From: Lama guanicoe
Lineage: Eukaryota
DNA length: 64,000 nt
NCBI GenBank assembly: GCA_013239625.1
Contig: MU053504.1
Coordinates: forward strand, 1,490,001 to 1,554,000
Direction: 5' to 3'
Shown here: positions 9,401-39,950 of the stretch, in pieces
Position numbering within the stretch: the stretch's first letter is position 1
Layout of the letters: every line of letters begins with the position of its first letter
Made by a program: the position numbers and the translations under genes
The notes under the pieces: model-generated
Told to the model about the DNA's origin: nothing
Database searches by the model: none
Seen by the model: the letters and a program-made list of their open reading frames with translations, nothing else

Positions 9401-10176
9401 AGGCTCCTGAAATGATACTAGCTGAAACACCCTCCTTCTCGAATGTTGTCTTCTCTTGTTGACCTGGATTAGTGCCCACTCCTTCGCTGTCCCCTTTTCC
9501 CCACCTTCAACCATCAAGTGGTGGCATTCCTCAAGCCTCCTACTCCGTCTTCTCATGCAGCACACACTCTGGTGATCCACACCCATCTCAGATTGCGGTC
9601 GTCTCGTGCCACTTTGTAATTTCAGTTGCCTCCTGTAAGCCAAGCATTCACAGGTTGGTATCTCCAACCCAGGACTCTACCCAGCTCTGGACTCACTAAA
9701 GAGCTCCTCTTTGCTTTCTTTCAGGCATTGCTCCCTCAGTACCTCTAAAACTGAGTTCAGTATCAACAAGCATTGAAGTGGACGCCTGGGTATAAAGCCC
9801 AGGGGTCAGATTCAGTGTTAAGAACCAGAAATAGAAGAAAGGCTCCCTAACCTGAGAGGCCCTCCTGAAGAGTCTTATTTCCTGCTAATGCAGGCGCCAG
9901 CTGGCCGCCCCCGCCTAGTCCCACCTCAGTCTGCGTCCTGGCTTATTGGCCGTACAGCCTGCCCTGCGGCATCCTCTGCTCCCTTACCTGCTGTCCCTAA
10001 GCACGCGTGTGGTCAGTTAGCCTATATGTTTCCAGTCACCCCCCTCTCCCTGCCCATGGGGGTCCTCCTCAACTTTCCTGTGGAAGACGAATGGAAGCTT
10101 TAGGGGCTCCTCTGTGGCTCACCCCATCTGAGCGCAGGGTCATGAGACTAACCTCTGCTCGCCTCTGTGTGGGCAG

Positions 10177-10265
10177 GAAGTATGAGCTGTACAGCATGGA
10201 CTGGGACCTACAGGAGGAGCTGAGGGACTGCCTGGTGGCTGCTGCGTCCTATGGGGGCCCCATTG
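10177..10265 (+). CDS. VPS16: VPS16 (HOPS/CORVET core subunit) coding exon 2; exon 1 lies upstream of the window
   Basis: cag|G AAG TAT...ATT G|gtaag; encodes (R)[29 protein letters not shown]; 89 nt. Confidence 0.96.
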
Positions 10266-10543
10266 GTAAGTCGCCCACTGCCGTCTCATGCTCTGGGACC
10301 ACGGCGAGAACTCAGAGTCCTTGATTGCTGGTGGTCTCTCTGTTGGGTGGTTCTTGCTGGCATGTGCTACCCACCCCCACCCACCCTACTGAGATGCTTT
10401 TAGTTCTGGTTCTCCTGAGGCCTGCTGCACATGGGGTGGGCCTAAGGAGCTAGTTGTGAACTAGTTAAGCAGGCTACCTAAGGCCTGCCTCACACAGAGT
10501 GGGCCCGGGCAGCTAGGGCAGAAGGTTCCTTCTCAAACTGCAG

Positions 10544-10641
10544 CACTGCTGAGGAACCCCTGGAAGAAGGAGAAGGCTGCCAGCATAAGGCCGGTTCTCG
10601 AGATCTACTCAGCTTCCGGTGTGCCTCTGGCCAGTCTGCTG
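10544..10641 (+). CDS. VPS16: VPS16 exon 3
   Basis: cag|...|gtaag; ALLRNPWKKEKAASIRPVLEIYSASGVPLASLL; 98 nt. Confidence 0.95.
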
Positions 10642-10717
10642 GTAAGCACCCTGCCCTGGGGCTGGGGCCAGGGGTTCACCCTGAGGATGGCCTCAGGAAC
10701 CTCCCTCTTCTCTGCAG

Positions 10718-10846
10718 TGGAAGAGTGGGCCCGTGGTGTCACTGGGCTGGTCGGCCGAGGAGGAGCTGCTCTGCGTTCAGGAAGATGGTGTGGTGCTGGT
10801 TTATGGTCTCCATGGTGACTTCCGGAGACACTTCAGCATGGGCAAC
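10718..10846 (+). CDS. VPS16: VPS16 exon 4
   Basis: cag|...|gtagg; [43 protein letters not shown]; 129 nt. Confidence 0.95.
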
Positions 10847-10925
10847 GTAGGGGCCCGAGGGGCTGGGGAAGAGGGATGGAGTCTGGGGCTCTGAGTCTCC
10901 CTTAACCTACGGCCCCTCTCTCCAG

Positions 10926-11070
10926 GAGGTGCTCCAGAACCGGGTCCTAGATGCCCGGATCTTCCATACTGAGTTTGGTTCTGGGGTGGCCATCCTCACA
11001 GGGGCCCACCGCTTCACCCTCAGTGCCAACGTGGGGGACCTCAAACTCCGCCGGATGCCAGAGGTGCCAG
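10926..11070 (+). CDS. VPS16: VPS16 exon 5
   Basis: cag|...|gtgag; [48 protein letters not shown]; 145 nt. Confidence 0.96.
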
Positions 11071-11165
11071 GTGAGCCCACAAATGTGCCTCCAGACCATG
11101 GGACCATCAGAGGCAGAAGCTGTGGGCCTTGGTCACCCTGTGGTTGTCCTGTTCCCTGGCTGCAG

Positions 11166-11281
11166 GTCTGCAGAGTGCACCGTCATGCTGGACCACGCTG
11201 TGCCAGGACCGAGTGGCACACATTCTTCTGGCTGTAGGACCTGATCTTTACCTCCTGGACCACGCAGCCTGCTCTGCAGTG
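11166..11281 (+). CDS. VPS16: VPS16 exon 6
   Basis: cag|...|gtgag; [39 protein letters not shown]; 116 nt. Confidence 0.95.
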
Positions 11282-11381
11282 GTGAGGGGTCTTGCGTGGG
11301 AGTGAAATGGAGGGACTGGGGGAGGCAGTGGGGAGGTTCTGAGAAGTCAGTATCTCTGGTGTCCTCCCTTCCCTGCCCCAG

Positions 11382-11504
11382 ACCCTCCCTGGCCTGGCCC
11401 CAGGAGTGAGCAGCTTCCTGCAGATGGCTGTCTCCTTCACCTACCGACACCTGGCACTCTTCACAGACACAGGCTACATCTGGATGGGGACAGCATCACT
11501 CAAG
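11382..11504 (+). CDS. VPS16: VPS16 exon 7
   Basis: cag|...|gtgtg; [41 protein letters not shown]; 123 nt. Confidence 0.95.
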
Positions 11505-11634
11505 GTGTGATCCTGGGACAATACAGGGGCACCATGCCTTGTCCAGGAAAGATCTGTTGGGGGTAGGGGAAGGGCTTTTCAACCAAACTGGCGACTGCTG
11601 GGACATGGCTATGACATTCCCTGCACCCTTTCAG

Positions 11635-11690
11635 GAGAAGCTGTGTGAGTTCAACTGCAACATCCGGGCCCCCCCGAAGCAGATGGTCTG
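11635..11690 (+). CDS. VPS16: VPS16 exon 8
   Basis: cag|...|gtgag; [18 protein letters not shown](W); 56 nt. Confidence 0.95.
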
Positions 11691-12007
11691 GTGAGGATGG
11701 GGGTGTTATGCTAGGGGTGGAAGTGGATGTAGCCTTGTCTCCTGGGACATGTTGATTCAGCCTGTCTACTGACCAAGCCAAGTGAGCTTATCTTCTCTGC
11801 CAGTGCACATTTGAGGGAAACCCCAACCCACTGTGGGCCCCAGATGCCCCTGGTTGCTGACAGCACAGGGTGAGAGGGAAGCAGACAGATCAGCCAGAGG
11901 AATGGGATAAGGGACAGCAAGCATGTGCAGGGCTAGACCCAGGCAAAGTGATGTGGGAGACATGGCTGTGGGCCAGGCATCCTGTGCGTGTCCCAGACAT
12001 TTATGTT

Positions 12008-12044
12008 TGTGTGTGTGTGTGTGTGTGTATGCGCGCGCGTGTGC
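12008..12044 (+). repeat. (TG)10-TA-TG-(CG)4-(TG)2 alternating purine/pyrimidine microsatellite
   Basis: Directly visible; ends 12 nt before exon 9. Confidence 0.95.
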
Positions 12045-12056
12045 TGCTGCCCACAG

Positions 12057-12146
12057 GTGCAGCCGTCCTCGCAGCAAGGAAAGGGCTGTCGTGGTGGCCT
12101 GGGAGAGGCGGCTAATGGTGGTGGGCGATGCACCTGAGAGCATCCA
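12057..12146 (+). CDS. VPS16: VPS16 exon 9
   Basis: cag|G TGC AGC...ATC CA|gtatcctt; [29 protein letters not shown](Q); 90 nt; U12-type donor. Confidence 0.95.
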
Positions 12147-12235
12147 GTATCCTTGGAGGGCTGCCAAGGGTTGGGGGGATGATAGCCTGCCCTACCCCAT
12201 CTCTTCGTGCTCTTGGGAACCTTGACCAAGCTTGG
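12147..12235 (+). other. VPS16: U12-type (minor) intron 9 of VPS16 with GT...GG termini
   Basis: 5' site GTATCCTT; branch site CCTTGAC 12220-12226; the frame is only restored if the intron ends ...cttgg at 12235. Confidence 0.88.
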
Positions 12236-12330
12236 GTTTGTGTTGGATGAAGACTCCTACCTGGTGCCTGAGCTGGATGGGGTCCGCATCTTCTCCCGCA
12301 GTACCCACGAGTTCCTGCACGAGGTTCCAG
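12236..12330 (+). CDS. VPS16: VPS16 exon 10
   Basis: G TTT GTG...CCA G|gtgag; [31 protein letters not shown]; 95 nt; non-canonical acceptor. Confidence 0.92.
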
Positions 12331-12483
12331 GTGAGGCCCTCACAAGGGCACTGGGTGACCCAGGGCAGGGGCCTCTGGGTACCACGGCTGCCCTGGGCTA
12401 GTGCCGCAGAACAGGATCAGGGCATTGAGGCAGGGCTGAGGCTTCCTGCCCCCTTCTCCTACTTACCAACTCCATTCCTCCAG

Positions 12484-12560
12484 TGGCCAGCGAGGAGATC
12501 TTTAAAATTGCCTCGATGGCCCCTGGAGCGCTGCTGTTGGAGGCCCAGAAGGAATATGAG
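12484..12560 (+). CDS. VPS16: VPS16 exon 11
   Basis: cag|...|gtaaa; [26 protein letters not shown]; 77 nt. Confidence 0.95.
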
Positions 12561-12985
12561 GTAAAGCCCTGGCTTTTCCCCCGGGCCCCAGGATGCTCTC
12601 CTTCCCCTCCCCCTTCCCCTGATGGGCCCAGCCCCTGCATCCAGCTGCCACCTGTCAGGACAGGGGTCCAGCTAGGACGCTGGGCTGGGCTGGGCTAGGG
12701 AGGGTTGGCTCAGGTAGATGGAAAAGACATAGTGTCCTCTGTGTGGTGATAGGGAGGGGCAGGGAGCCCCCACTATTCCCAGTCTAGGCACAAGTCAGGG
12801 CTACTATTGAGAGGTCTCAGGGCCCCCCATAGGCTATGGTGGGCTGATATGGGGTGGGGTGTGGGCTCCGACCTCTGCAGCCCGCCAGACTAGCCCATTT
12901 GAATCACAGCCCCAGAGGGGTGGGGGCCAGACTGGCGGTGTTCCCTGCCATGACACATTGTCTCTTGCACCCTCCCTCACCCCAG

Positions 12986-13117
12986 AAAGAGAGCCAGAAG
13001 GCTGATGAGTACCTGCGGGAGATCCAGGAGCTGGGGCAGCTGACCCAGGCCGTGCAGCAGTGCATCGAGGCCGCAGGACACGAGCACTGGCCAGACATGC
13101 AGAAGAGTCTGCTCAGG
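12986..13117 (+). CDS. VPS16: VPS16 exon 12
   Basis: cag|...|gtcgg; [44 protein letters not shown]; 132 nt. Confidence 0.94.
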
Positions 13118-13212
13118 GTCGGCCCAGGAGGCAGGGCTGGAGGGAGGGCCGCTGGGCAGGGGTGGGCTGGCAGAGGGGAAGCTCTCCTCTCTTGCCCTCT
13201 GGCTCTTCTCAG

Positions 13213-13340
13213 GCGGCCTCGTTTGGAAAGTGTTTCCTCGACAGATTTCCACCAGACAGCTTCGTGCGCATGTGTCAGGACCTACGTGTGCTCAATGCTG
13301 TTCGAGACTATCACATCGGGATCCCCCTCACCTATAGCCA
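13213..13340 (+). CDS. VPS16: VPS16 exon 13
   Basis: cag|...AGC CA|gtatcccc; [42 protein letters not shown](Q); 128 nt. Confidence 0.95.
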
Positions 13341-13468
13341 GTATCCCCAAGTGTGCTGGAAGGGTATTTACTGCCGTGGGTGGGGGGAAGTGGCTGGAGA
13401 TGACGCCTAAAGGTCCTTGGCACGTAGGGCTCGTTCCCCTGCTGGAGCCTTAACCGAATGAAATACAG
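13341..13468 (+). other. VPS16: U12-type (minor) intron 13 of VPS16, GT-AG subtype
   Basis: 5' site GTATCCCC; branch site CCTTAAC 13448-13454, branch A 15 nt from the intron end; no polypyrimidine tract (gaatgaaatacag). Confidence 0.9.
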
Positions 13469-13504
13469 ATACAAGCAGCTCACCATCCAGGTGCTGCTGG
13501 ACAG
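13469..13504 (+). CDS. VPS16: VPS16 exon 14
   Basis: cag|A TAC AAG...GAC AG|gtaca; [11 protein letters not shown](R); 36 nt. Confidence 0.93.
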
Positions 13505-13691
13505 GTACAGCAAGCCCAAGGGTGCTGGGAGGGGCTGCAGCGGGCAGCATTACAGCGCCGGACGTGCTCCTGTGGTCACTGCTCCTGACCCCTTTCCTTT
13601 GGATCTGGGAGGCCCGAGTTCGAGGCTGGGGCCACTCTGCCCTCTTTCTACCCACCTCACCCCCGGGCCCTTTACCCCCCTTGCCTGCCAG

Positions 13692-13800
13692 GCTTGTGTT
13701 GCGGAGGCTTTATCCTCTGGCCATTCAGATATGTGAGTACCTGCGGCTTCCTGAAGTGCAGGGCGTCAGCAGGATCCTGGCCCACTGGGCCTGCTATAAG
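13692..13800 (+). CDS. VPS16: VPS16 exon 15
   Basis: cag|...|gtgag; [36 protein letters not shown]; 109 nt. Confidence 0.95.
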
Positions 13801-13964
13801 GTGAGGATGTAGGACAGAGTTCAGTGGCATTTAGGGGCTTCTAGACCCTGGTGAGGTGTAGCAAATATGAAGTGTAGACTGAAAGGGTGGGTCCTGATGG
13901 AGGCAGTGGGAGTGGGGGCTAGGAGATGAGAGCCAGGTGTGTGTGACACCCCTTCCCTCTGCAG

Positions 13965-14099
13965 GTACAGCAGAAAGACGTGTCTGACGAGGATGTTGCG
14001 CGGGCCATTAACCAGAAGCTGGGGGACACGCCTGGCGTGTCTTACTCAGACATTGCCGCACGAGCCTATGGCTGTGGCCGCACGGAACTGGCCATCAAG
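13965..14099 (+). CDS. VPS16: VPS16 exon 16
   Basis: cag|...|gtagg; [45 protein letters not shown]; 135 nt. Confidence 0.95.
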
Positions 14100-14191
14100 G
14101 TAGGTGCCTAGCCTTCCCCAGATGCTCTGATGTGGGTAGTAGATGCCCCCAGGCCAGCTCCTTCCCGCTGTGCCTTCCTCCCCACCCGCAG

Positions 14192-14300
14192 CTGCTGGAG
14201 TATGAGCCACGCTCCGGGGAGCAGGTACCCCTTCTGCTAAAGATGAAGAGGAGCAAACTGGCACTAAGCAAGGCCATCGAGAGTGGGGACACCGACCTGG
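14192..14300 (+). CDS. VPS16: VPS16 exon 17
   Basis: cag|...|gtgag; [36 protein letters not shown]; 109 nt. Confidence 0.95.
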
Positions 14301-14394
14301 GTGAGCAGGGTTTGGGTGAGGGCAAGGCTGGGGTCTCTGAGGAGGGCAAGTGGTAGTAGGGCTGGAACCCCCATCCCACCTCATCATCCCATAG

Positions 14395-14492
14395 TGTTCA
14401 CGGTGCTGCTGCACCTGAAGAATGAGCTGAATCGAGGAGATTTTTTCATGACGCTTCGGAACCAGCCCATGGCCCTGAGTCTGTACCGACAG
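14395..14492 (+). CDS. VPS16: VPS16 exon 18
   Basis: tag|...|gtgtg; [33 protein letters not shown]; 98 nt. Confidence 0.95.
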
Positions 14493-14575
14493 GTGTGTGC
14501 GGTGGGCAGGGTGGGACTGGAGGCTCCGAGCCCCTGAGTTGGCCTTGCTGACTGCCCGCTTGCCCGTTGCCCCAG

Positions 14576-14683
14576 TTCTGTAAGCATCAGGAGCTGGAGA
14601 CGCTGAAGGACCTTTACAATCAGGATGACAACCATCAGGAGCTGGGCAGCTTCCACATCCGAGCCAGCTACGCTGCAGAGGAG
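14576..14683 (+). CDS. VPS16: VPS16 exon 19
   Basis: cag|...|gtctg; [36 protein letters not shown]; 108 nt. Confidence 0.95.
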
Positions 14684-14991
14684 GTCTGAGGGCCACGGGG
14701 CGTGTGGGGCCCACGGGCTGGCTTCTCCTCCAGGTGTCTGGGCCTTGAATGTGGTGCACACCCCATCTGATCCTCACTGTTGAGGAAGAGCCTGAGAAGA
14801 CATGAGGCCAGGATGGGGGTTGGTCCCAGAGGAGCCGGCCTTCCTGCTAGGGACACTAGAGCAGTGTGCCCAGCGGGTGAGGCTGGCACTGGCGACCCTG
14901 GGCACAGGGATGGGGAGAAAACCATCACCTAGGTGGGGAAAGCTGAGGTGCTTTGTGCTGTGAGCTCAGGTGTCCCTTCTTGTCCTGGTAG

Positions 14992-15069
14992 CGCATTGAG
15001 GGGCGAGTCGCAGCTCTGCAGACAGCAGCCGACGCCTTCTACAAGGCCAAGAATGAGTTTGCAGCCAAG
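14992..15069 (+). CDS. VPS16: VPS16 exon 20
   Basis: tag|...|gtctg; [26 protein letters not shown]; 78 nt. Confidence 0.95.
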
Positions 15070-15164
15070 GTCTGGCCCCTTCTTTTCTGCGAGCCTCTTC
15101 TTCTCCCCTCCCAGTATCCCCCCATTGTCTCTCTCATTCCTGTCCTGCCTCATCCCTGTCCCAG

Positions 15165-15334
15165 GCCACAGAGGATCAAATGCGGCTCCTACGGCTGCAG
15201 CGACGCCTAGAAGACGAGCTGGGGGGCCAGTTCTTAGACCTGTCTCTACATGACACGGTCACCACCCTCATCCTTGGCGGCCAGAACAAGCGCGCGGAGC
15301 AGCTGGCGCGTGACTTCCGCATCCCTGACAAGAG
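15165..15334 (+). CDS. VPS16: VPS16 exon 21
   Basis: cag|...|gtagg; [56 protein letters not shown](R); 170 nt. Confidence 0.95.
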
Positions 15335-15416
15335 GTAGGAGAGGGCCCGGTCGGCGTGTAGTTCCTGGGATCCCCTGGCCCCTCCTGCAGCACCTCCACG
15401 CCCAGCTTCCCCACAG

Positions 15417-15513
15417 GCTCTGGTGGCTGAAACTGACCGCCCTGGCACATCTGGAAGACTGGGAAGAGCTAGAGAAGTTTTCTAAGAGCAAGAAATCACC
15501 CATCGGCTACCTG
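15417..15513 (+). CDS. VPS16: VPS16 exon 22
   Basis: cag|...|gtgagt; [32 protein letters not shown]; 97 nt. Confidence 0.95.
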
Positions 15514-15854
15514 GTGAGTAGGGCCCACCCTCCACCCCACCTCCAGTGAGGGAGGGTCCTCCTGGGGAGAGGACCAGGCTCAGAGACAGGCTGATGGCCT
15601 GTTCACGCATCTGTTCAGCTACTCCACAGAGTTAGTGGGTGCTTCCTGTGTATGCACGTTTGTGGGCCAGGCACGCGGGAGGTGGGCCCAAGTCTGCCTG
15701 CAACTGTTGGCGGTAGGGAGAATCAGCTGCTCTTCCCAAGGAGGACCATGGGGGACACCATGTGCCTGAAGGAAAGTCCTGTTGGAGTGGTGGTGGAGGG
15801 GCACAGGGAGGAAACATTTGCGAGGCAGTGGAGGATGTTGACAGGTTGGTTTTC

Positions 15855-15904
15855 TGTGGCAGGCGGTTCAGAGGTGTGGCAGGTGGTTCAGAGGTGTGGC
15901 AGGT
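15855..15904 (+). repeat. 20-bp tandem repeat x2.5 (tgtggcaggYggttcagagg) in VPS16 intron 22
   Basis: Directly visible; one mismatch between the two full units. Confidence 0.85.
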
Positions 15905-16236
15905 AGTGGGGCTAAGGGCAGCCTGGGAGGACAGCTAATGCCTGCTGTGAGTGGGTAGCAGTGGATGGTGGAGTGGATGCATGGAATTGTTGGGTTTCAG
16001 AGCTCCAACAGATCTTTGGTTTAGGTCGTTTCTGCCCTAAGAATGTTAGGATCACAATACTGTTGTGTGTGTGTAACTGTTGTATGTGTATTTTGGGCAG
16101 GGTTGAGGGGTATAATGTGGGGTATAATGTAAGGTATACATACTGAAGGGTATAGTGTAGCTACTGGGCTTTGTTCATAAGAGAGGACAGGAGGGCTCTG
16201 CCTTATCTTTTCCCTTCACCCTCTCCCCCTCCTAAG

Positions 16237-16340
16237 CCCTTTGTGGAAATCTGCATGAAGCAACACAACAAATACGAGGCCAAGAAGTATGCCTCCCGTG
16301 TGGGTCCTGAGCAGAAGGTCAAGGCATTGCTTCTCGTTGG
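16237..16340 (+). CDS. VPS16: VPS16 exon 23
   Basis: aag|CCC TTT...GTT GG|gtgcgt; [34 protein letters not shown](G); 104 nt. Confidence 0.94.
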
Positions 16341-16455
16341 GTGCGTCTGCCGAGGGCCCCGAGGGTGCTGGGTGGCTGAGCCAATGGGCTGATGAGAGGC
16401 ACGGTTTGTGCCCCTGGGCAGCCCAACAACGTCTCCCCTCCTGCTCAAATCCCAG

Positions 16456-16600
16456 GGATGTGGCTCAGGCTGCAGACGTGGCCATTGAGCACCGGAACGA
16501 GGCAGAGATGAGCCTCGTATTGTCCCACTGCACCGGAGCCACGGACGGGGCCACAGCCGACAAGATTCAGCGGGCCCGGGCACAGGCCCAAAAGAAGTAA
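16456..16600 (+). CDS. VPS16: VPS16 exon 24 (terminal), stop TAA 16598-16600
   Basis: cag|G GAT GTG...; [47 protein letters not shown]; exons 2-24 total 2467 coding nt. Confidence 0.96.
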
Positions 16601-16728: not shown

Positions 16729-17959
16729 GCTGAAACATTTTAGAGTGCTTGTATTGTGCAATCCAGCCTGAGCGAAAACAAGCTGGAGGCAGAACCATCC
16801 AGACACCTCAGGAGCTGAGGGCTCCTGTGTCGGGCTGGAGAGGAAGCTTCTCCAGCGATAGTTACAAGAGACCTGCCCCCCTCCACAGTTACTAAGGAAA
16901 GTCCTCACAAGCACACAGGCCCTAGGAAGATTATGGGGAGAGATGACATAAAATGTAATGAACACCAAGTCATCAAGAACCGCACTGAAAAGCATTGCAC
17001 GTGTACACACACAAACACACACACGAAACTTGCTAAGCACTTTAGCTCTGTTTTCATTTATTTCACAAGACAGCCCTGGGAGACAGGTAATACCACCCCA
17101 TCGTAAGAGAAAATTAGGGATTGAGGACTGGGGAGCAAGTATGTGGCAAGACTGGGATTTGAAACCATATTGGACATTTGGGGGCCTTAGAGCTGCTCCT
17201 TGGCTGTTGTGGTAACAGAGGAGGGGTGACTCAGCCGGACCTGAAACAGGGCCCTCTGAGCCGGGGATCCTGAGGCTAGGCCCCTGGTGTGCACTCCAGT
17301 GAGGAGTGGAGGACTGATGAGAGGTGTGCAGCTGCTGCATTGGAGGGATCAGGGAAACCCTGCCTACTGGACAGTGGGGAGCAATTCCTGAGTGGTCTCT
17401 GGGCTGAAAAGAAAAAGAGGATGGCATTCTCCTTTAGGCAATTCTGCCAAGGAAGGGCTGCAGACTGGCGACCCTTGGCTCCACCCTCCCCCCCGATGGA
17501 GGCTTCACCCCTAGTCAGTAGGAATGCCTTCATGGCCTTCAGGGCTCCCAGTCTGTAGCCTCAGTCTACACTCCAGTGCACCTTGGCTTCATGCCCCAGC
17601 ATCCCTACCTAACACCGAGGGCATTGTCTTTCTTCTTGTGGCCCCCTTTAGTCTAGAAGGAAGACAAAGGAGGAAACCAAAGCCCAGAGAGAAGGCAGGC
17701 CTCCCTGGAACTTCTGGCTTCCCCTCTTTAACGCCCCTAGGACTATGCTTAAAAAGAGCGAGAGACTCAGCTTGGTAAGGTGTTTCTTTTTCTTCCCCTA
17801 CCTGGTTTGTAAATGTAAATTTGTGAAAATCCTGCAAGGGGATATAAAGCAAACTGTAAGACAACCATGTATTATGCTCACCTCTTATTATATCGTTCAA
17901 GAATTTGAACAAGATAAAACAAGGGATAGTGCGCCTGCCCCACAAGGTCTAGGCCATCA

Positions 17960-19810: not shown

Positions 19811-22279
19811 GTTCCATTTATTAGATGGGGAAAGGAGGCCCCAAAAGGGGAAGTGACTTGCCTAAAGAAACAGGCATCCTTTACTCCCATCCTCCAGCTC
19901 TCCTTCTAGTCCAGTCCTTTTCTCATAAACCTGTGACTACGGTCTCCTGTGGGGTGGCTGAAAAGTGCCTACGTGTAGGGTGTGCTCTCGTCTGCTGGGA
20001 CTAAAGCAGGACCAAGAGCAGGGCTTCGGCCTCCTCTCTCCTCACAAGAAGTCTACCTCTCTCAGCTCCTCTCTTCTCTCCTCCTCAAGGAGAGCGCTTT
20101 GCCTTGTGGTGATGGAGGTAAGCTGTGGACACCTGGGGCATCAGTAGGATGAGAAGTCTGGACAGATCTCTACAGGTGGGCAGCTGAGGATGGGACTCTG
20201 TTCTCTCCCGCTGCAAATAGGGTCTGTGTGGTCACCAAACTGAAATTCCCTTCTCAGGGTCTCGAGGATGAAATATGCAAGGCCCTGTCTCTCCTTGGTG
20301 TGAGGTCCTGTCACCTCTGCACACACACCACAGATGCTCTGACCACAGAGCAGCTGTCTCATGGAGAGAAGGAACTGCATTTCCTGAGAATGGGTTACTT
20401 GCCAAGCTGTACATGCCTGCGATTCTCAGAACAGCCCTGGGAGGTTCCAGGAAGAGAAGCAGAGGGAGACTCAGGTCAAGCAGCCAATGGCAAGGCTTGA
20501 AACCCAGGGGCTCTCTGACTACCACACTCAACCACAGCATTTCCCTAAGTGTGGTCAGATTCCATGGGGATACTTCAGATGAGCTCAAGGATGAATGCTT
20601 TTTATTTTAATAGCTATTTTAATGTAGATTAGGAAATATAAGTAGCATGTCAAACCCTTTTATGGTAGTATTAAGTAAAATCAGAAATTAAAAAAAAATT
20701 AACCAAAAGAAACATATTAAGGAATAGTAGTGTAGGTTAAATGTAGGTAAAGCAAGCCTAGTGGAGTTTGGTTCTGGGTGCTCCTGTCCTGGTTACCCAG
20801 GTACCTCCTGCACTCGCAATCATTATTTTTCAAGATTTCCAAACAGTTAAGTTCGGACTTATTCACTTTTCCTTTCAGTGTGCGGATAGTGTTGGGGCTT
20901 CCTGGGTAACTGGTTGGTGTGCAGAAGGACCTGCCCTCCTTGGTGCCCCTGGGGTCCAACAAGAGATCGGGGGTCTGTCAGGCTGAGGCGTCTTGGACTC
21001 AGCCATTTCACAACACTTCTGGGTCAGCCTTGCTGAGAGGCAGCGGGAGATACAACTGCTACTCAAGGAGGACTTCCCCGTAAGGGAGGAGATGGCCTGA
21101 AGGAGGCCCACTGCACCCCGTATTCCCTGGCCGTGGCTCTGGTCAACACATACTTATTCCACAAACACCGAGGGGAGCAGGGTATAGAGAGTCCTAAACT
21201 GGCGCCCCAACTCGAGGTGGTGGGGGGGACTGGAGGTGGTGGGAATGCCAATGGCGGTGAATGACAGCTGACATGGACTTCTCCTGCTCCGAAATGTCTC
21301 CGCCGCATCATCCCTGCCGCGAATAATTGCCACCAGTCACAGGCCCTTCCCCTTGGGGCGGGCCGAACCTGGGACTCTGCCCGGCGACGGGAGGGAGAGG
21401 GTGGCTCAGGGGCTGCGGGCCCGGAAGAGAGGCTCCGCCCACCCCAGGCAGCGCGGGCTCCAGATCAGGGATGAAGGGTACCCCAGCAAGCTCCGCTTGC
21501 GCACTGCTGTGCAATGTCTCCAGCCCACAGACTCGCAGCCACAATCCCTGTGCGGTTCCTGCTTGGGGACTAAACCAGGGGAGTGTCTCAACCGCCACCG
21601 ACCAAGACTAATTCATCGGCCTTCAGCCGTGCATCCCCAAGTCCTGCAGCCTGGGGACCTGCTGCCGCCCAACATACGGACCACTTTGAGGCGCCCACGT
21701 GCGGCAGGGAGCGCTGGGAAGGAGGTCCGCGCCTTCCACCCAGTTCCCTACCCCAGAGGGAGACGCATACATCTCCCTGTCCTCTCTGCACTTTGAACCT
21801 CCTCTCTCGCTAGGCCTATCGCAAACGACACCCCCACTGCAGAGCAGCGCGTGTAGTGTTTCTACCCGCCTCGGTGCGAGCCAGGCCCCGGTACGCCCAT
21901 CTGGAAAGCTGGGAGATTTCCCTGCGGCTCGGTGGGGATGGCGTGGGTTGAGATGATGTAAAACGACAGCCACGGTACTAGGCCTCTTCAAGGGGCTTTG
22001 TAGATACGTCTCCCTCCCCAATGAGAGCCTCCGTTCCTTAAATATCTTGCAGCAATTAGAAAAGGAAGGAAACAAAATCTGAATGGAACACGTCTGGAGA
22101 TTGGAATGGAAAGACGACTTCTGAGTTCCAGGCTGCCCTGGCCTCATTGGTGTAATTTGCGTTTGGCCTCAGTTTTCGCATCTGTAAACTGGGAAGAAGG
22201 CACACGTCCGGGGGCTGGGACTATCGAGAGGCGGAAGGCGTTGGTGCATGGACGGCCAGTGCCCCTGGAGTCCGGCTTC

Positions 22280-37899: not shown

Positions 37900-39950
37900 A
37901 TTCTTAGAACGGCTGGGCTGTTGACACCATTTATCAAATTGAGGATGTTCCCCTCCATTCCTTGTTGCAAAGAGTTTTTAATGAATGATGTTAAATTACA
38001 TCCCATACTTTTTCTGCATCTATTGATATACATATATTTCTTTAAATTGTCAATATGATGAATTACATTAATCAACTCTTCATGAGAAAATGCTATTATA
38101 TTCTTCTTTTAAGCTCATTTTATCAAATTTTTATTATAAAATATAGATAACAAAATGTACCATTTTCACTATTTTTAAGTGTTCAGTTCAGTGTACATTC
38201 GCATTGATTGTTGTGCTTTTGTCACCACTATCTATCTCCATAACTCTTTCATCATCTCCAACTGGAACTCTGTACTCTAAATTTAAACAGTAAGTTCCCT
38301 GTTTCTCCCTCTCTGTAGCTGTTGGCAACTACCTTTCTATTAAGTAGTTTTAAAATTAAACACAATTTGGTCATGATGTGTACTGTATTATCATTTTTAT
38401 CTTATACATTGATGGTATCAGATTCCTGATATTTTGGTTGGATTTTTTTTCAACAACAGTTCAGACTATTTTCTAATTTCCATTGTTATTTTTCTTCTTT
38501 GATTCATGGATTATTTATAAGTGTGTCTTTTAATTTTCAACCATGAGGGTTTTCTTTTTTATATGAACTTACAGATTTAATTGCATTGTGGTTAAAGAAT
38601 ATGGCCTGTATGATTTTAGTCCTTGGGAAATCAATATTTATTTGCTGTTTGGCCGAGTATATTCTTCACCCAGATTCTACATTATTAATGTTAAATTATT
38701 AACATTTTATCATAACTGCCTTATCTTTGTCATTGTATCCTTCTAGCTATACAATTTTTCTGAATCATTTGAGAGATAAGTTGCAGACATAAGGCTCTGT
38801 AACCTCTGAATCAGTATGTATATCCTGAAAACAGAAGAGGATACTGCTGCCTAATTCACAGACACCAACCACTCAGATTTCACTGATCTCCTAGTTATAT
38901 TCTTTTCAGAAAAAGGAAACAAAACCCCAAAAGATCAATAATAACCCAACTTTCCCCCCAAAAACAAAAACAGAAAAACCTCTTCCCTTTCCCCTTGTCT
39001 TTCCAATTCAGAGACCATCCAGGACCATGCCTTGTATTTAGTTATCATGTCTCTTCAGTTTCCTTCAATTTGGTATTAAAATCATCTTGTTTTCAATGAG
39101 CTTGACATTTTATAAGAAAAGGCCATTTACTTTGTAGAGTGTTCGTCAATTTTGCTTAGTCTGATGTTTCCTTATAAACAGATTTAGGTTATGCATTTTG
39201 GGCAGGAATACCACAGACAAGATGAGTTCTCACTGCATCATATCAGGAGGCACATGTCAATTTGTCTCATTCTGTTATGTTAAATTTTATCACTTGGTTA
39301 AGATGTGTGACATGTTTCTACACTGTGAAGTCAGTTCAAAGTGTTTTGCACTTGATAATAAGTAAATATTATACCTTTTGTGGGATGATACTTTGAGGCT
39401 ATGTAAATAGTTCATTTCTCACCAAATTTTTACCTACTAGTTTCACCATCCATTGATGATTTGTGCCTGAGTCAGTTATTACTACAGTGGTTACCATATG
39501 GTGAAATTTTAAAAATGTCATCATTCCTTCTGCTTTCATCATTTGGCATTTCACTGTAAGGAAAAGCTTTCTCTCCCTTTTTTCCCCCTTTTTTAAAAAT
39601 AATTTAAATGTATCAGCATGAATTCCTGGAACCTATTATTCATTTATTGCTTATTCTCATGCTCAAAATTGTCGCAGATTTGGCCAAGGGAACCTTTTCA
39701 AGCTGGCTCCTGTGAACTTTTCTCATGTCCCCATCAGTCTGATCACTTATGTTTCTTACTTTTTGGCACAGTGAGATTTTCCATGCGCATGTTTCACTGC
39801 CCCAGTCCTGGAATCAACGATTTCATCAAGAAACTCTGGTTCCTCTTATTAGAGGATGCATTTAGGAAACAAGATCTGAATGCCAGATATGTTCTTTGGG
39901 GTGTCATTGCTCTTCAGCTCTATTAGAGGTCAGAGATAGGATATTGTTTT
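37900..39950. mobile_element. Nested old L1M/L1MC fragments
   Basis: ORF 37890..38075(-) INVIHHIDNLKK...IKNSLQQGMEGNILNLINGV resembles L1 RT; L1MC-like 3'UTR text at 39020-39900. Confidence 0.55.

Follow-up and report, generated by a model that had tools for sequence, protein, structure and literature searches.

A small class of U12-type introns ends in GG. Of the U12 introns compiled by Sheth et al. (2006; PMC1557818, Tables 2 and 3), five in human and three in mouse have GT-GG termini; the ARAF intron ends in GG in both species, while the SLC12A7 intron ends in GG in human and in AG in mouse (Table 3). In Parada et al. (2014; PMC4176328), the BANP intron is shown to be of the GT-GG kind in most vertebrates, with fish having GT-AG. 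A sequence-only reading of the locus described here had relied on the existence of rare non-AG/AC termini, and GT-GG U12 introns are indeed an established rare subtype (Sheth et al. 2006; Parada et al. 2014). Our sequence analysis places intron 9 of VPS16 in this already known kind, as an instance that appears to be new and specific to one lineage. A full-text literature search found no paper in which VPS16 and GT-GG occur together, and VPS16 is absent from one supplementary table of human noncanonical junctions in Parada et al. 2014 (file 3), so that table offers no precedent for GG at VPS16 intron 9.

Two further bodies of work frame the comparison. U12 introns have no polypyrimidine tract, and the portions of the review by Turunen et al. 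(2013) that treat 3' splice sites describe the distance from the branch point to the 3' site as important, with an optimum of 11 to 13 nt; these portions add that noncanonical termini support U12 splicing, often less efficiently, and that 3' site choice is error-prone. The sequence-only reading, in holding that U12 3' sites are chosen largely by branch-point distance, agrees with this account. VPS16 itself is listed with two minor introns in the Minor Intron Database (MIDB; Olthof et al. 2019, PMC6717393, supplementary files 1 and 8), and its minor-intron retention has been studied experimentally as that of a standard test gene, as far as the relevant sections of Niemela et al. (2014; PMC4066798) and Jacquier et al. 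(2022; PMC8848931) describe; the branch consensus given in that section of the latter is TTCCTTRAY.

The window, meaning the whole 64,000-nucleotide stretch of Lama guanicoe DNA that was analyzed, carries VPS16 exons 2 to 24 on the plus strand at 10176 to 16600 (821 codons plus stop), within a GC-rich region at 10.1 to 16.6 kb. These 23 exons were located by tblastn with a full-length VPS16 (P0039), with borders refined by hand, and when joined they can be read without interruption in one frame, through 821 codons and up to the regular stop at 16598. The encoded protein is identical to Camelus dromedarius XP_064331902.1 (P0200, RefSeq) at 817 of 820 positions, leaving three residues that differ, and to Marmota VPS16 at 801 of 821. 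Judged by this full-length similarity, the gene is VPS16, a core subunit of HOPS/CORVET; the sequence-only reading had named the same gene, and the tblastn exon map together with the dromedary identity bears it out. Pfam domains PF04841 and PF04840 (Vps16_N and Vps16_C) are precomputed on the homologues. Four residue motifs of the window protein were found in none of the first 120 homologues, and among 84 further cluster members only two Camelus dromedarius proteins carry them. With the near-identity to dromedary VPS16 and the three differences from it, this marks the genome as that of a camelid other than the dromedary.

Protein matches across the 2.05-Gb genome (22 of 22) fall at this one locus, making VPS16 single copy, and with all 22 matches at the VPS16 locus there is no processed pseudogene or retrocopy to record the junction. 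Exon 1 (MDCYTANW...) lies outside the window, a correction to the sequence-only reading: a pattern search of the species' own genome gave one match, on the same contig and 1.5 kb upstream of the window start (G000:C1036:1488489). The earlier statement that the rest of the coding sequence is intact holds, with all exons intact in the 821-codon frame. Within the window, 21 of 22 VPS16 introns are GT-AG, intron 9 being the sole exception, and VPS16 looks functional because these other 21 introns and all exons are intact.

Several other features of the region were recorded. An open frame at 9473 to 9616 resembles the 44 residues that a sperm-whale VPS16 isoform (P0045) has inserted between FYR and KYELY and is probably an alternative exon within the 11.7-kb VPS16 intron 1. 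In the 900-amino-acid Camelus VPS16 isoform X1 (P0200), the last residue is replaced by a tail containing LEGRQRRKPK... and ...ALPCGDGGKLWTPGASVG; counterparts of the tail are found in open frames of the window at about 17650 to 17775 and 20050 to 20149, downstream of VPS16, and suggest a splice variant that reads through toward the next gene. In some database clusters, VPS16 and PTPRA names even occur together.

Exon 9 (12057 to 12146, plus strand) ends in ...APESI followed by CA, the first two bases of a Q codon, and its 3' end reads ...GAG AGC ATC CA with the last base at 12146. Intron 9 follows at 12147 to 12235 on the plus strand, 89 nt long and U12-type by its signals, with GT-GG termini in the assembly as given. 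Read directly from the sequence, its first eight bases, GTATCCTT at 12147 to 12154 (plus strand), conform to RTATCCTT and lie exactly at the exon boundary. The U12 branch-point sequence CCTTGAC occupies 12220 to 12226 (plus strand), and its only A, at 12225, is the putative branch adenosine; with two more bases the motif, AACCTTGAC at 12218 to 12226, is close to TCCTTRAC. From the branch adenosine to the intron end at 12235 is 10 nt, one below the quoted optimum of 11 to 13 nt, and we counted this spacing as U12-like. The intervening bases, ccaagcttgg, form no pyrimidine tract and contain a decoy AG at 12229 to 12230 (plus strand), 5 nt after the branch adenosine, which would shift the frame if used. 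The intron ends cttGG and is followed by G TTT GTG TTG GAT GAA GAC; the terminal GG (12234 to 12235, plus strand) lies within a GGG run at 12234 to 12236, and 12234 is the base that appears derived. Exon 10 (12236 to 12330, plus strand) consists of G, 31 residues, and G, and its residues F18 to D23 are invariant in alignment A1. Direct reading thus agrees with the U12 donor, the CCTTGAC branch site with A at 12225, and the missing pyrimidine tract next to the acceptor that had been described from the letters.

The donor octamer alone is not rare, with two copies of GTATCCTT in 64 kb against 2.1 expected. Donor and branch site at intron spacing occur once against 0.11 expected, and at least once in 10 of 100 shuffles. 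The weight of the intron 9 signals is in their exact placement at the exon 9 boundary and in the identity of the donor to a catalogued VPS16 12-mer. The only other exact GTATCCTT in the window is at 38735 to 38742 (plus strand). A (GT)n/(GC)n microsatellite lies at 12005 to 12035, directly upstream of the exon 9 acceptor.

The closest described counterparts of this intron are the MIDB entries for the same gene. One of the two catalogued minor introns is at chr20:2861705-2861804 in human (100 nt) and chr2:130439526-130439619 in mouse (94 nt), compared with 89 nt in the window; the other is 130 nt in human and 127 nt in mouse, compared with 128 nt for window intron 13. As in the window, where the two introns are 1.2 kb apart, the catalogued pair occurs in the same order and about 1.1 to 1.2 kb apart. 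The 5' splice site 12-mer listed for VPS16 in both human and mouse, CCAGTATCCTTG, is identical to window positions 12144 to 12155, and the mouse branch-site 12-mer contains CCTTGAC, as does intron 9. By sequence, order, and size, intron 9 is the orthologue of the catalogued human and mouse minor intron and is U12-type, as the sequence-only reading had proposed. The difference lies in the terminus: GG in the window, compared with AG in the human and mouse orthologues as deduced from arginine in 56 of 56 read-through open reading frames (ORFs).

Intron 13, the second U12-type intron (13341 to 13468, plus strand, 128 nt), has the same phase as intron 9 and the arrangement GTATCCCC ... CCTTAAC ... 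AG. Its donor has CC where the consensus has TT, and its branch site CCTTAAC is perfect, 14 nt before the AG. Genes for U12 (157.9 bits) and U6atac (143.4 bits) snRNAs are present in the genome. Among the database sequences, P0161 (a Logan contig of 1,112 nt) has an ORF that reads through the 3' part of intron 9 with intron 10 spliced out; judged by its sequence it is a transcript with the minor intron retained, which fits the published retention of VPS16 minor introns.

To compare the possible 3' ends of intron 9, candidate splices were run on the rebuilt 23-exon VPS16 model. With 12146 joined to 12236, the frame stays open for 821 codons as far as the usual stop at 16598 and yields ESIQ|FVLDED, a sequence found in the VPS16 proteins of many mammals as well as in the dromedary RefSeq model P0200. 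Use of the decoy AG (12146^12231) leads to a stop in exon 12 at 13041, the next GG (12146^12237) leads to the same stop at 13041, 12146^12235 leads to a stop at 12248, and retention of intron 9 leads to a stop at 12223. Two claims of the sequence-only reading survive these tests: that ESI-Q-FVLDED arises only if the intron ends at the GG at 12234 to 12235, since only 12146^12236 yields it, and that the nearby AG at 12229 to 12230 shifts the frame to a stop in exon 12. Its list of junctions was incomplete, as two others also keep the frame to the normal stop. One removes a cryptic canonical GT-AG interval at 12170 to 12252 (plus strand; 12169^12253), replacing FVLDE with YPWRAAK. The other, 12146^13469, joins the exon 9 donor to exon 14 and skips exons 10 to 13.

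These two routes raise the possibility that G at 12234 is real and the GG site unused, with transcripts made through the cryptic interval or as the 695-amino-acid type of isoform. One dromedary gene model, P0203, takes the 12170 to 12252 route, a similar goat model (P0135) exists, and the ESIQ|YKQLTIQ join from the intron 9 donor to the intron 13 acceptor is found in 33 of 178 long VPS16 proteins from many mammals. Set against this, the RefSeq dromedary model retains ESIQFVLDED, the cryptic donor GTTGGG looks weak to the eye, as does its acceptor, and goat P0135 is built in a similar way though goat relatives have AG, so gene models of this sort are uninformative on the 3' site. FVLDE and exons 10 to 13 are intact and conserved in the window, which argues that the full-length route is still used, and the perfect U12 donor and branch site have been retained. 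On this evidence, abandonment of the GG site seems quite improbable, and splicing at 12146^12236 would remain the expected route to full-length VPS16.

The exon-skipping junction corresponds to a known VPS16 short isoform of about 695 amino acids (exon 9 to exon 14). This isoform shares the U12 donor of intron 9 (ESIQ|), and the window sequence would also keep it in frame; it differs from splicing at the GG in using the intron 13 acceptor and dropping exons 10 to 13, and the GG site is not involved. A weakened intron 9 acceptor might raise the share of this isoform. As a separate matter, we considered P0203 as an indirect sign that camels are without the AG and rejected it, since goat, gibbon, and desman models are similarly misbuilt at this junction.

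Whether GG is ancestral or derived can be read from the codon formed by the last two intron bases and the first exon base, which gives R for AG|G and G for GG|G in a comparison made on proteins and ORFs. A protein search with the window read-through ORF (12186 to 12398) returned 34 hits, consisting of 30 read-through ORFs, one spliced bird model, and three sequences that start downstream of the site. Ten clusters supplied 27 further members, 26 of them covering the intron-end site. All 56 read-through ORFs of other amniotes have R (NGG) before FVLDED, and the window alone has G (GGG). Named long models that retain intron sequence, from polar bear, a bat, two mole-rats, a cat, a gibbon, and a desman, also have R. 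Of 50 orthologous ORFs that extend six or more residues upstream, among them P0167, a spliced model rather than a read-through, 45 show the pattern xLTxxR, which is compatible with the same branch motif and a 10-nt spacing. K at position -3, in 45 of 57 ORFs, is compatible with the same decoy AG being present and routinely skipped in the orthologues.

The uniform R before FVLDED indicates, at the level of translated sequence, that AG at +10 is the ancestral 3' site and that G at 12234 is a derived change from the A deduced in other amniotes. The upstream AG at 12229 to 12230 is probably an old decoy that is routinely skipped. For a real GT-GG intron, the sequence-only reading had left two options, a conserved GG or a lineage-specific change from AG to GG; the lineage-specific option fits, and the conserved one fails on the 56 of 56 ORFs. 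A metagenome scan for orthologous DNA based on alignment A1 gave 109 stretches that fit the pattern, of which tblastn confirmed none. No protein of the same species turned up when proteins were searched with exon 3 and its flanks or with the ORF that reads through from intron 9 into exon 10.

The same data have to be weighed against the alternative that G at 12234 is not the normal base of the species; the sequence-only reading had itself named a base error at 12234 as an option. It could be an assembly or base-calling error, or a rare and possibly harmful heterozygous allele, in an intron that is really a GT-AG U12 intron. AG is what the 56 of 56 read-through ORFs of other amniotes imply, and the G is unique among the 57 sequences compared, a pattern that a base error would share. 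The assembly is a draft (2.05 Gb, 55,231 contigs), and exact look-ups of three ATG-started locus ORFs, two intended positive controls included, found none in the protein collection, so that no independent copy of the sequence came from that source and the intended controls were missed as well. What speaks for a true base is its surroundings: local base quality looks high because the 2,468 nt of VPS16 coding sequence around it are free of frameshifts and stops and the protein departs from that of the dromedary at only 3 of 820 residues. By a rough estimate, not computed, a true substitution within tens of millions of years is more probable than an error at just this base, and switching between AG and GG is documented for U12 introns (SLC12A7, BANP). 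Taken together, an error or a rare allele is an unlikely explanation, and we infer that 12234 really carries G and that RNA is spliced at the GG.

The explanation that best accounts for these observations is that the 3' AG of an ancient U12-type VPS16 intron 9 mutated to GG (A>G at 12234) in the camelid lineage and that the intron is still spliced as 12146^12236, a reading to which we assign a probability of about 0.68. Under this proposal, the minor spliceosome would recognize the intact 5' splice site GTATCCTT and the branch site CCTTGAC. The 3' site would then be taken mainly by its distance from the branch adenosine, 10 nt here and, by inference, in the orthologues. In structures of the spliceosome, the final base of the intron, a G, is paired with its first, also a G, and the A at -2 touches the branch adenosine. 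After the A>G change at -2, the intron would still have its terminal G to partner the 5' G; the cut would still fall after 12235 because the change left both the distance and the terminal G intact, and splicing would go on joining 12146 to 12236 to give normal VPS16. Since GT-GG U12 introns are a known rare class, a lineage-specific change from AG to GG could plausibly be tolerated by 3' site choice of this distance-based kind.

Three further observations count against this reading. The -2 A is highly conserved in U12 introns, according to the passage of Lin et al. (2010) that summarizes Dietrich et al. (2005). The branch-to-end distance of 10 nt is just under the 11- to 13-nt optimum. Because of the GGG run, an intron cut at +9, +10, or +11 from the branch adenosine would have G as its last base in each case, which may make splicing less precise. 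Together with the 10-nt spacing, the run predicts a degree of 1-nt slippage and reduced efficiency.

The odds slightly favor the fuller description of this site, namely, a young, lineage-specific change from AG to GG at -2 of a U12-type 3' site, placed in a GGG run with a decoy AG 5 nt upstream, in a gene that is both essential and single copy. If that description is true, the locus amounts to a natural experiment in how the minor spliceosome chooses 3' sites by distance. The description would predict measurable 1-nt slippage, with the resulting frameshift expected to trigger mRNA decay, as well as more retention of intron 9 and a shift toward the isoform without exons 10 to 13, in which the donor of intron 9 is spliced to the acceptor of intron 13. 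If the change is common to all camelids, the switch would have been fixed and tolerated since before the split of camels and South American camelids. The locus also bears on annotation: noncanonical U12 termini are routinely misannotated, and dromedary P0203 swaps five invariant residues to avoid the junction.

Compared with the described GT-GG introns, VPS16 intron 9 reveals no new mechanism. A switch from AG to GG that is dated and lies in a housekeeping gene would be a clean natural addition to the few known GT-GG introns and would offer a testable example of the reliance of the minor spliceosome on branch-site distance versus AG. The introns of ARAF, SLC12A7, and BANP differ from it in belonging to other genes and in being supported by RNA, while VPS16 intron 9 is known from assembly sequence and its change looks recent and confined to one lineage. 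The likeness is in the splice sites themselves, as these introns, like the one in the window, have G at -2 of their 3' end together with a 5' splice site of the U12 type. In the subtype represented by SLC12A7 and BANP, a single base switches between GT-GG and GT-AG from lineage to lineage, as proposed here for VPS16 intron 9.
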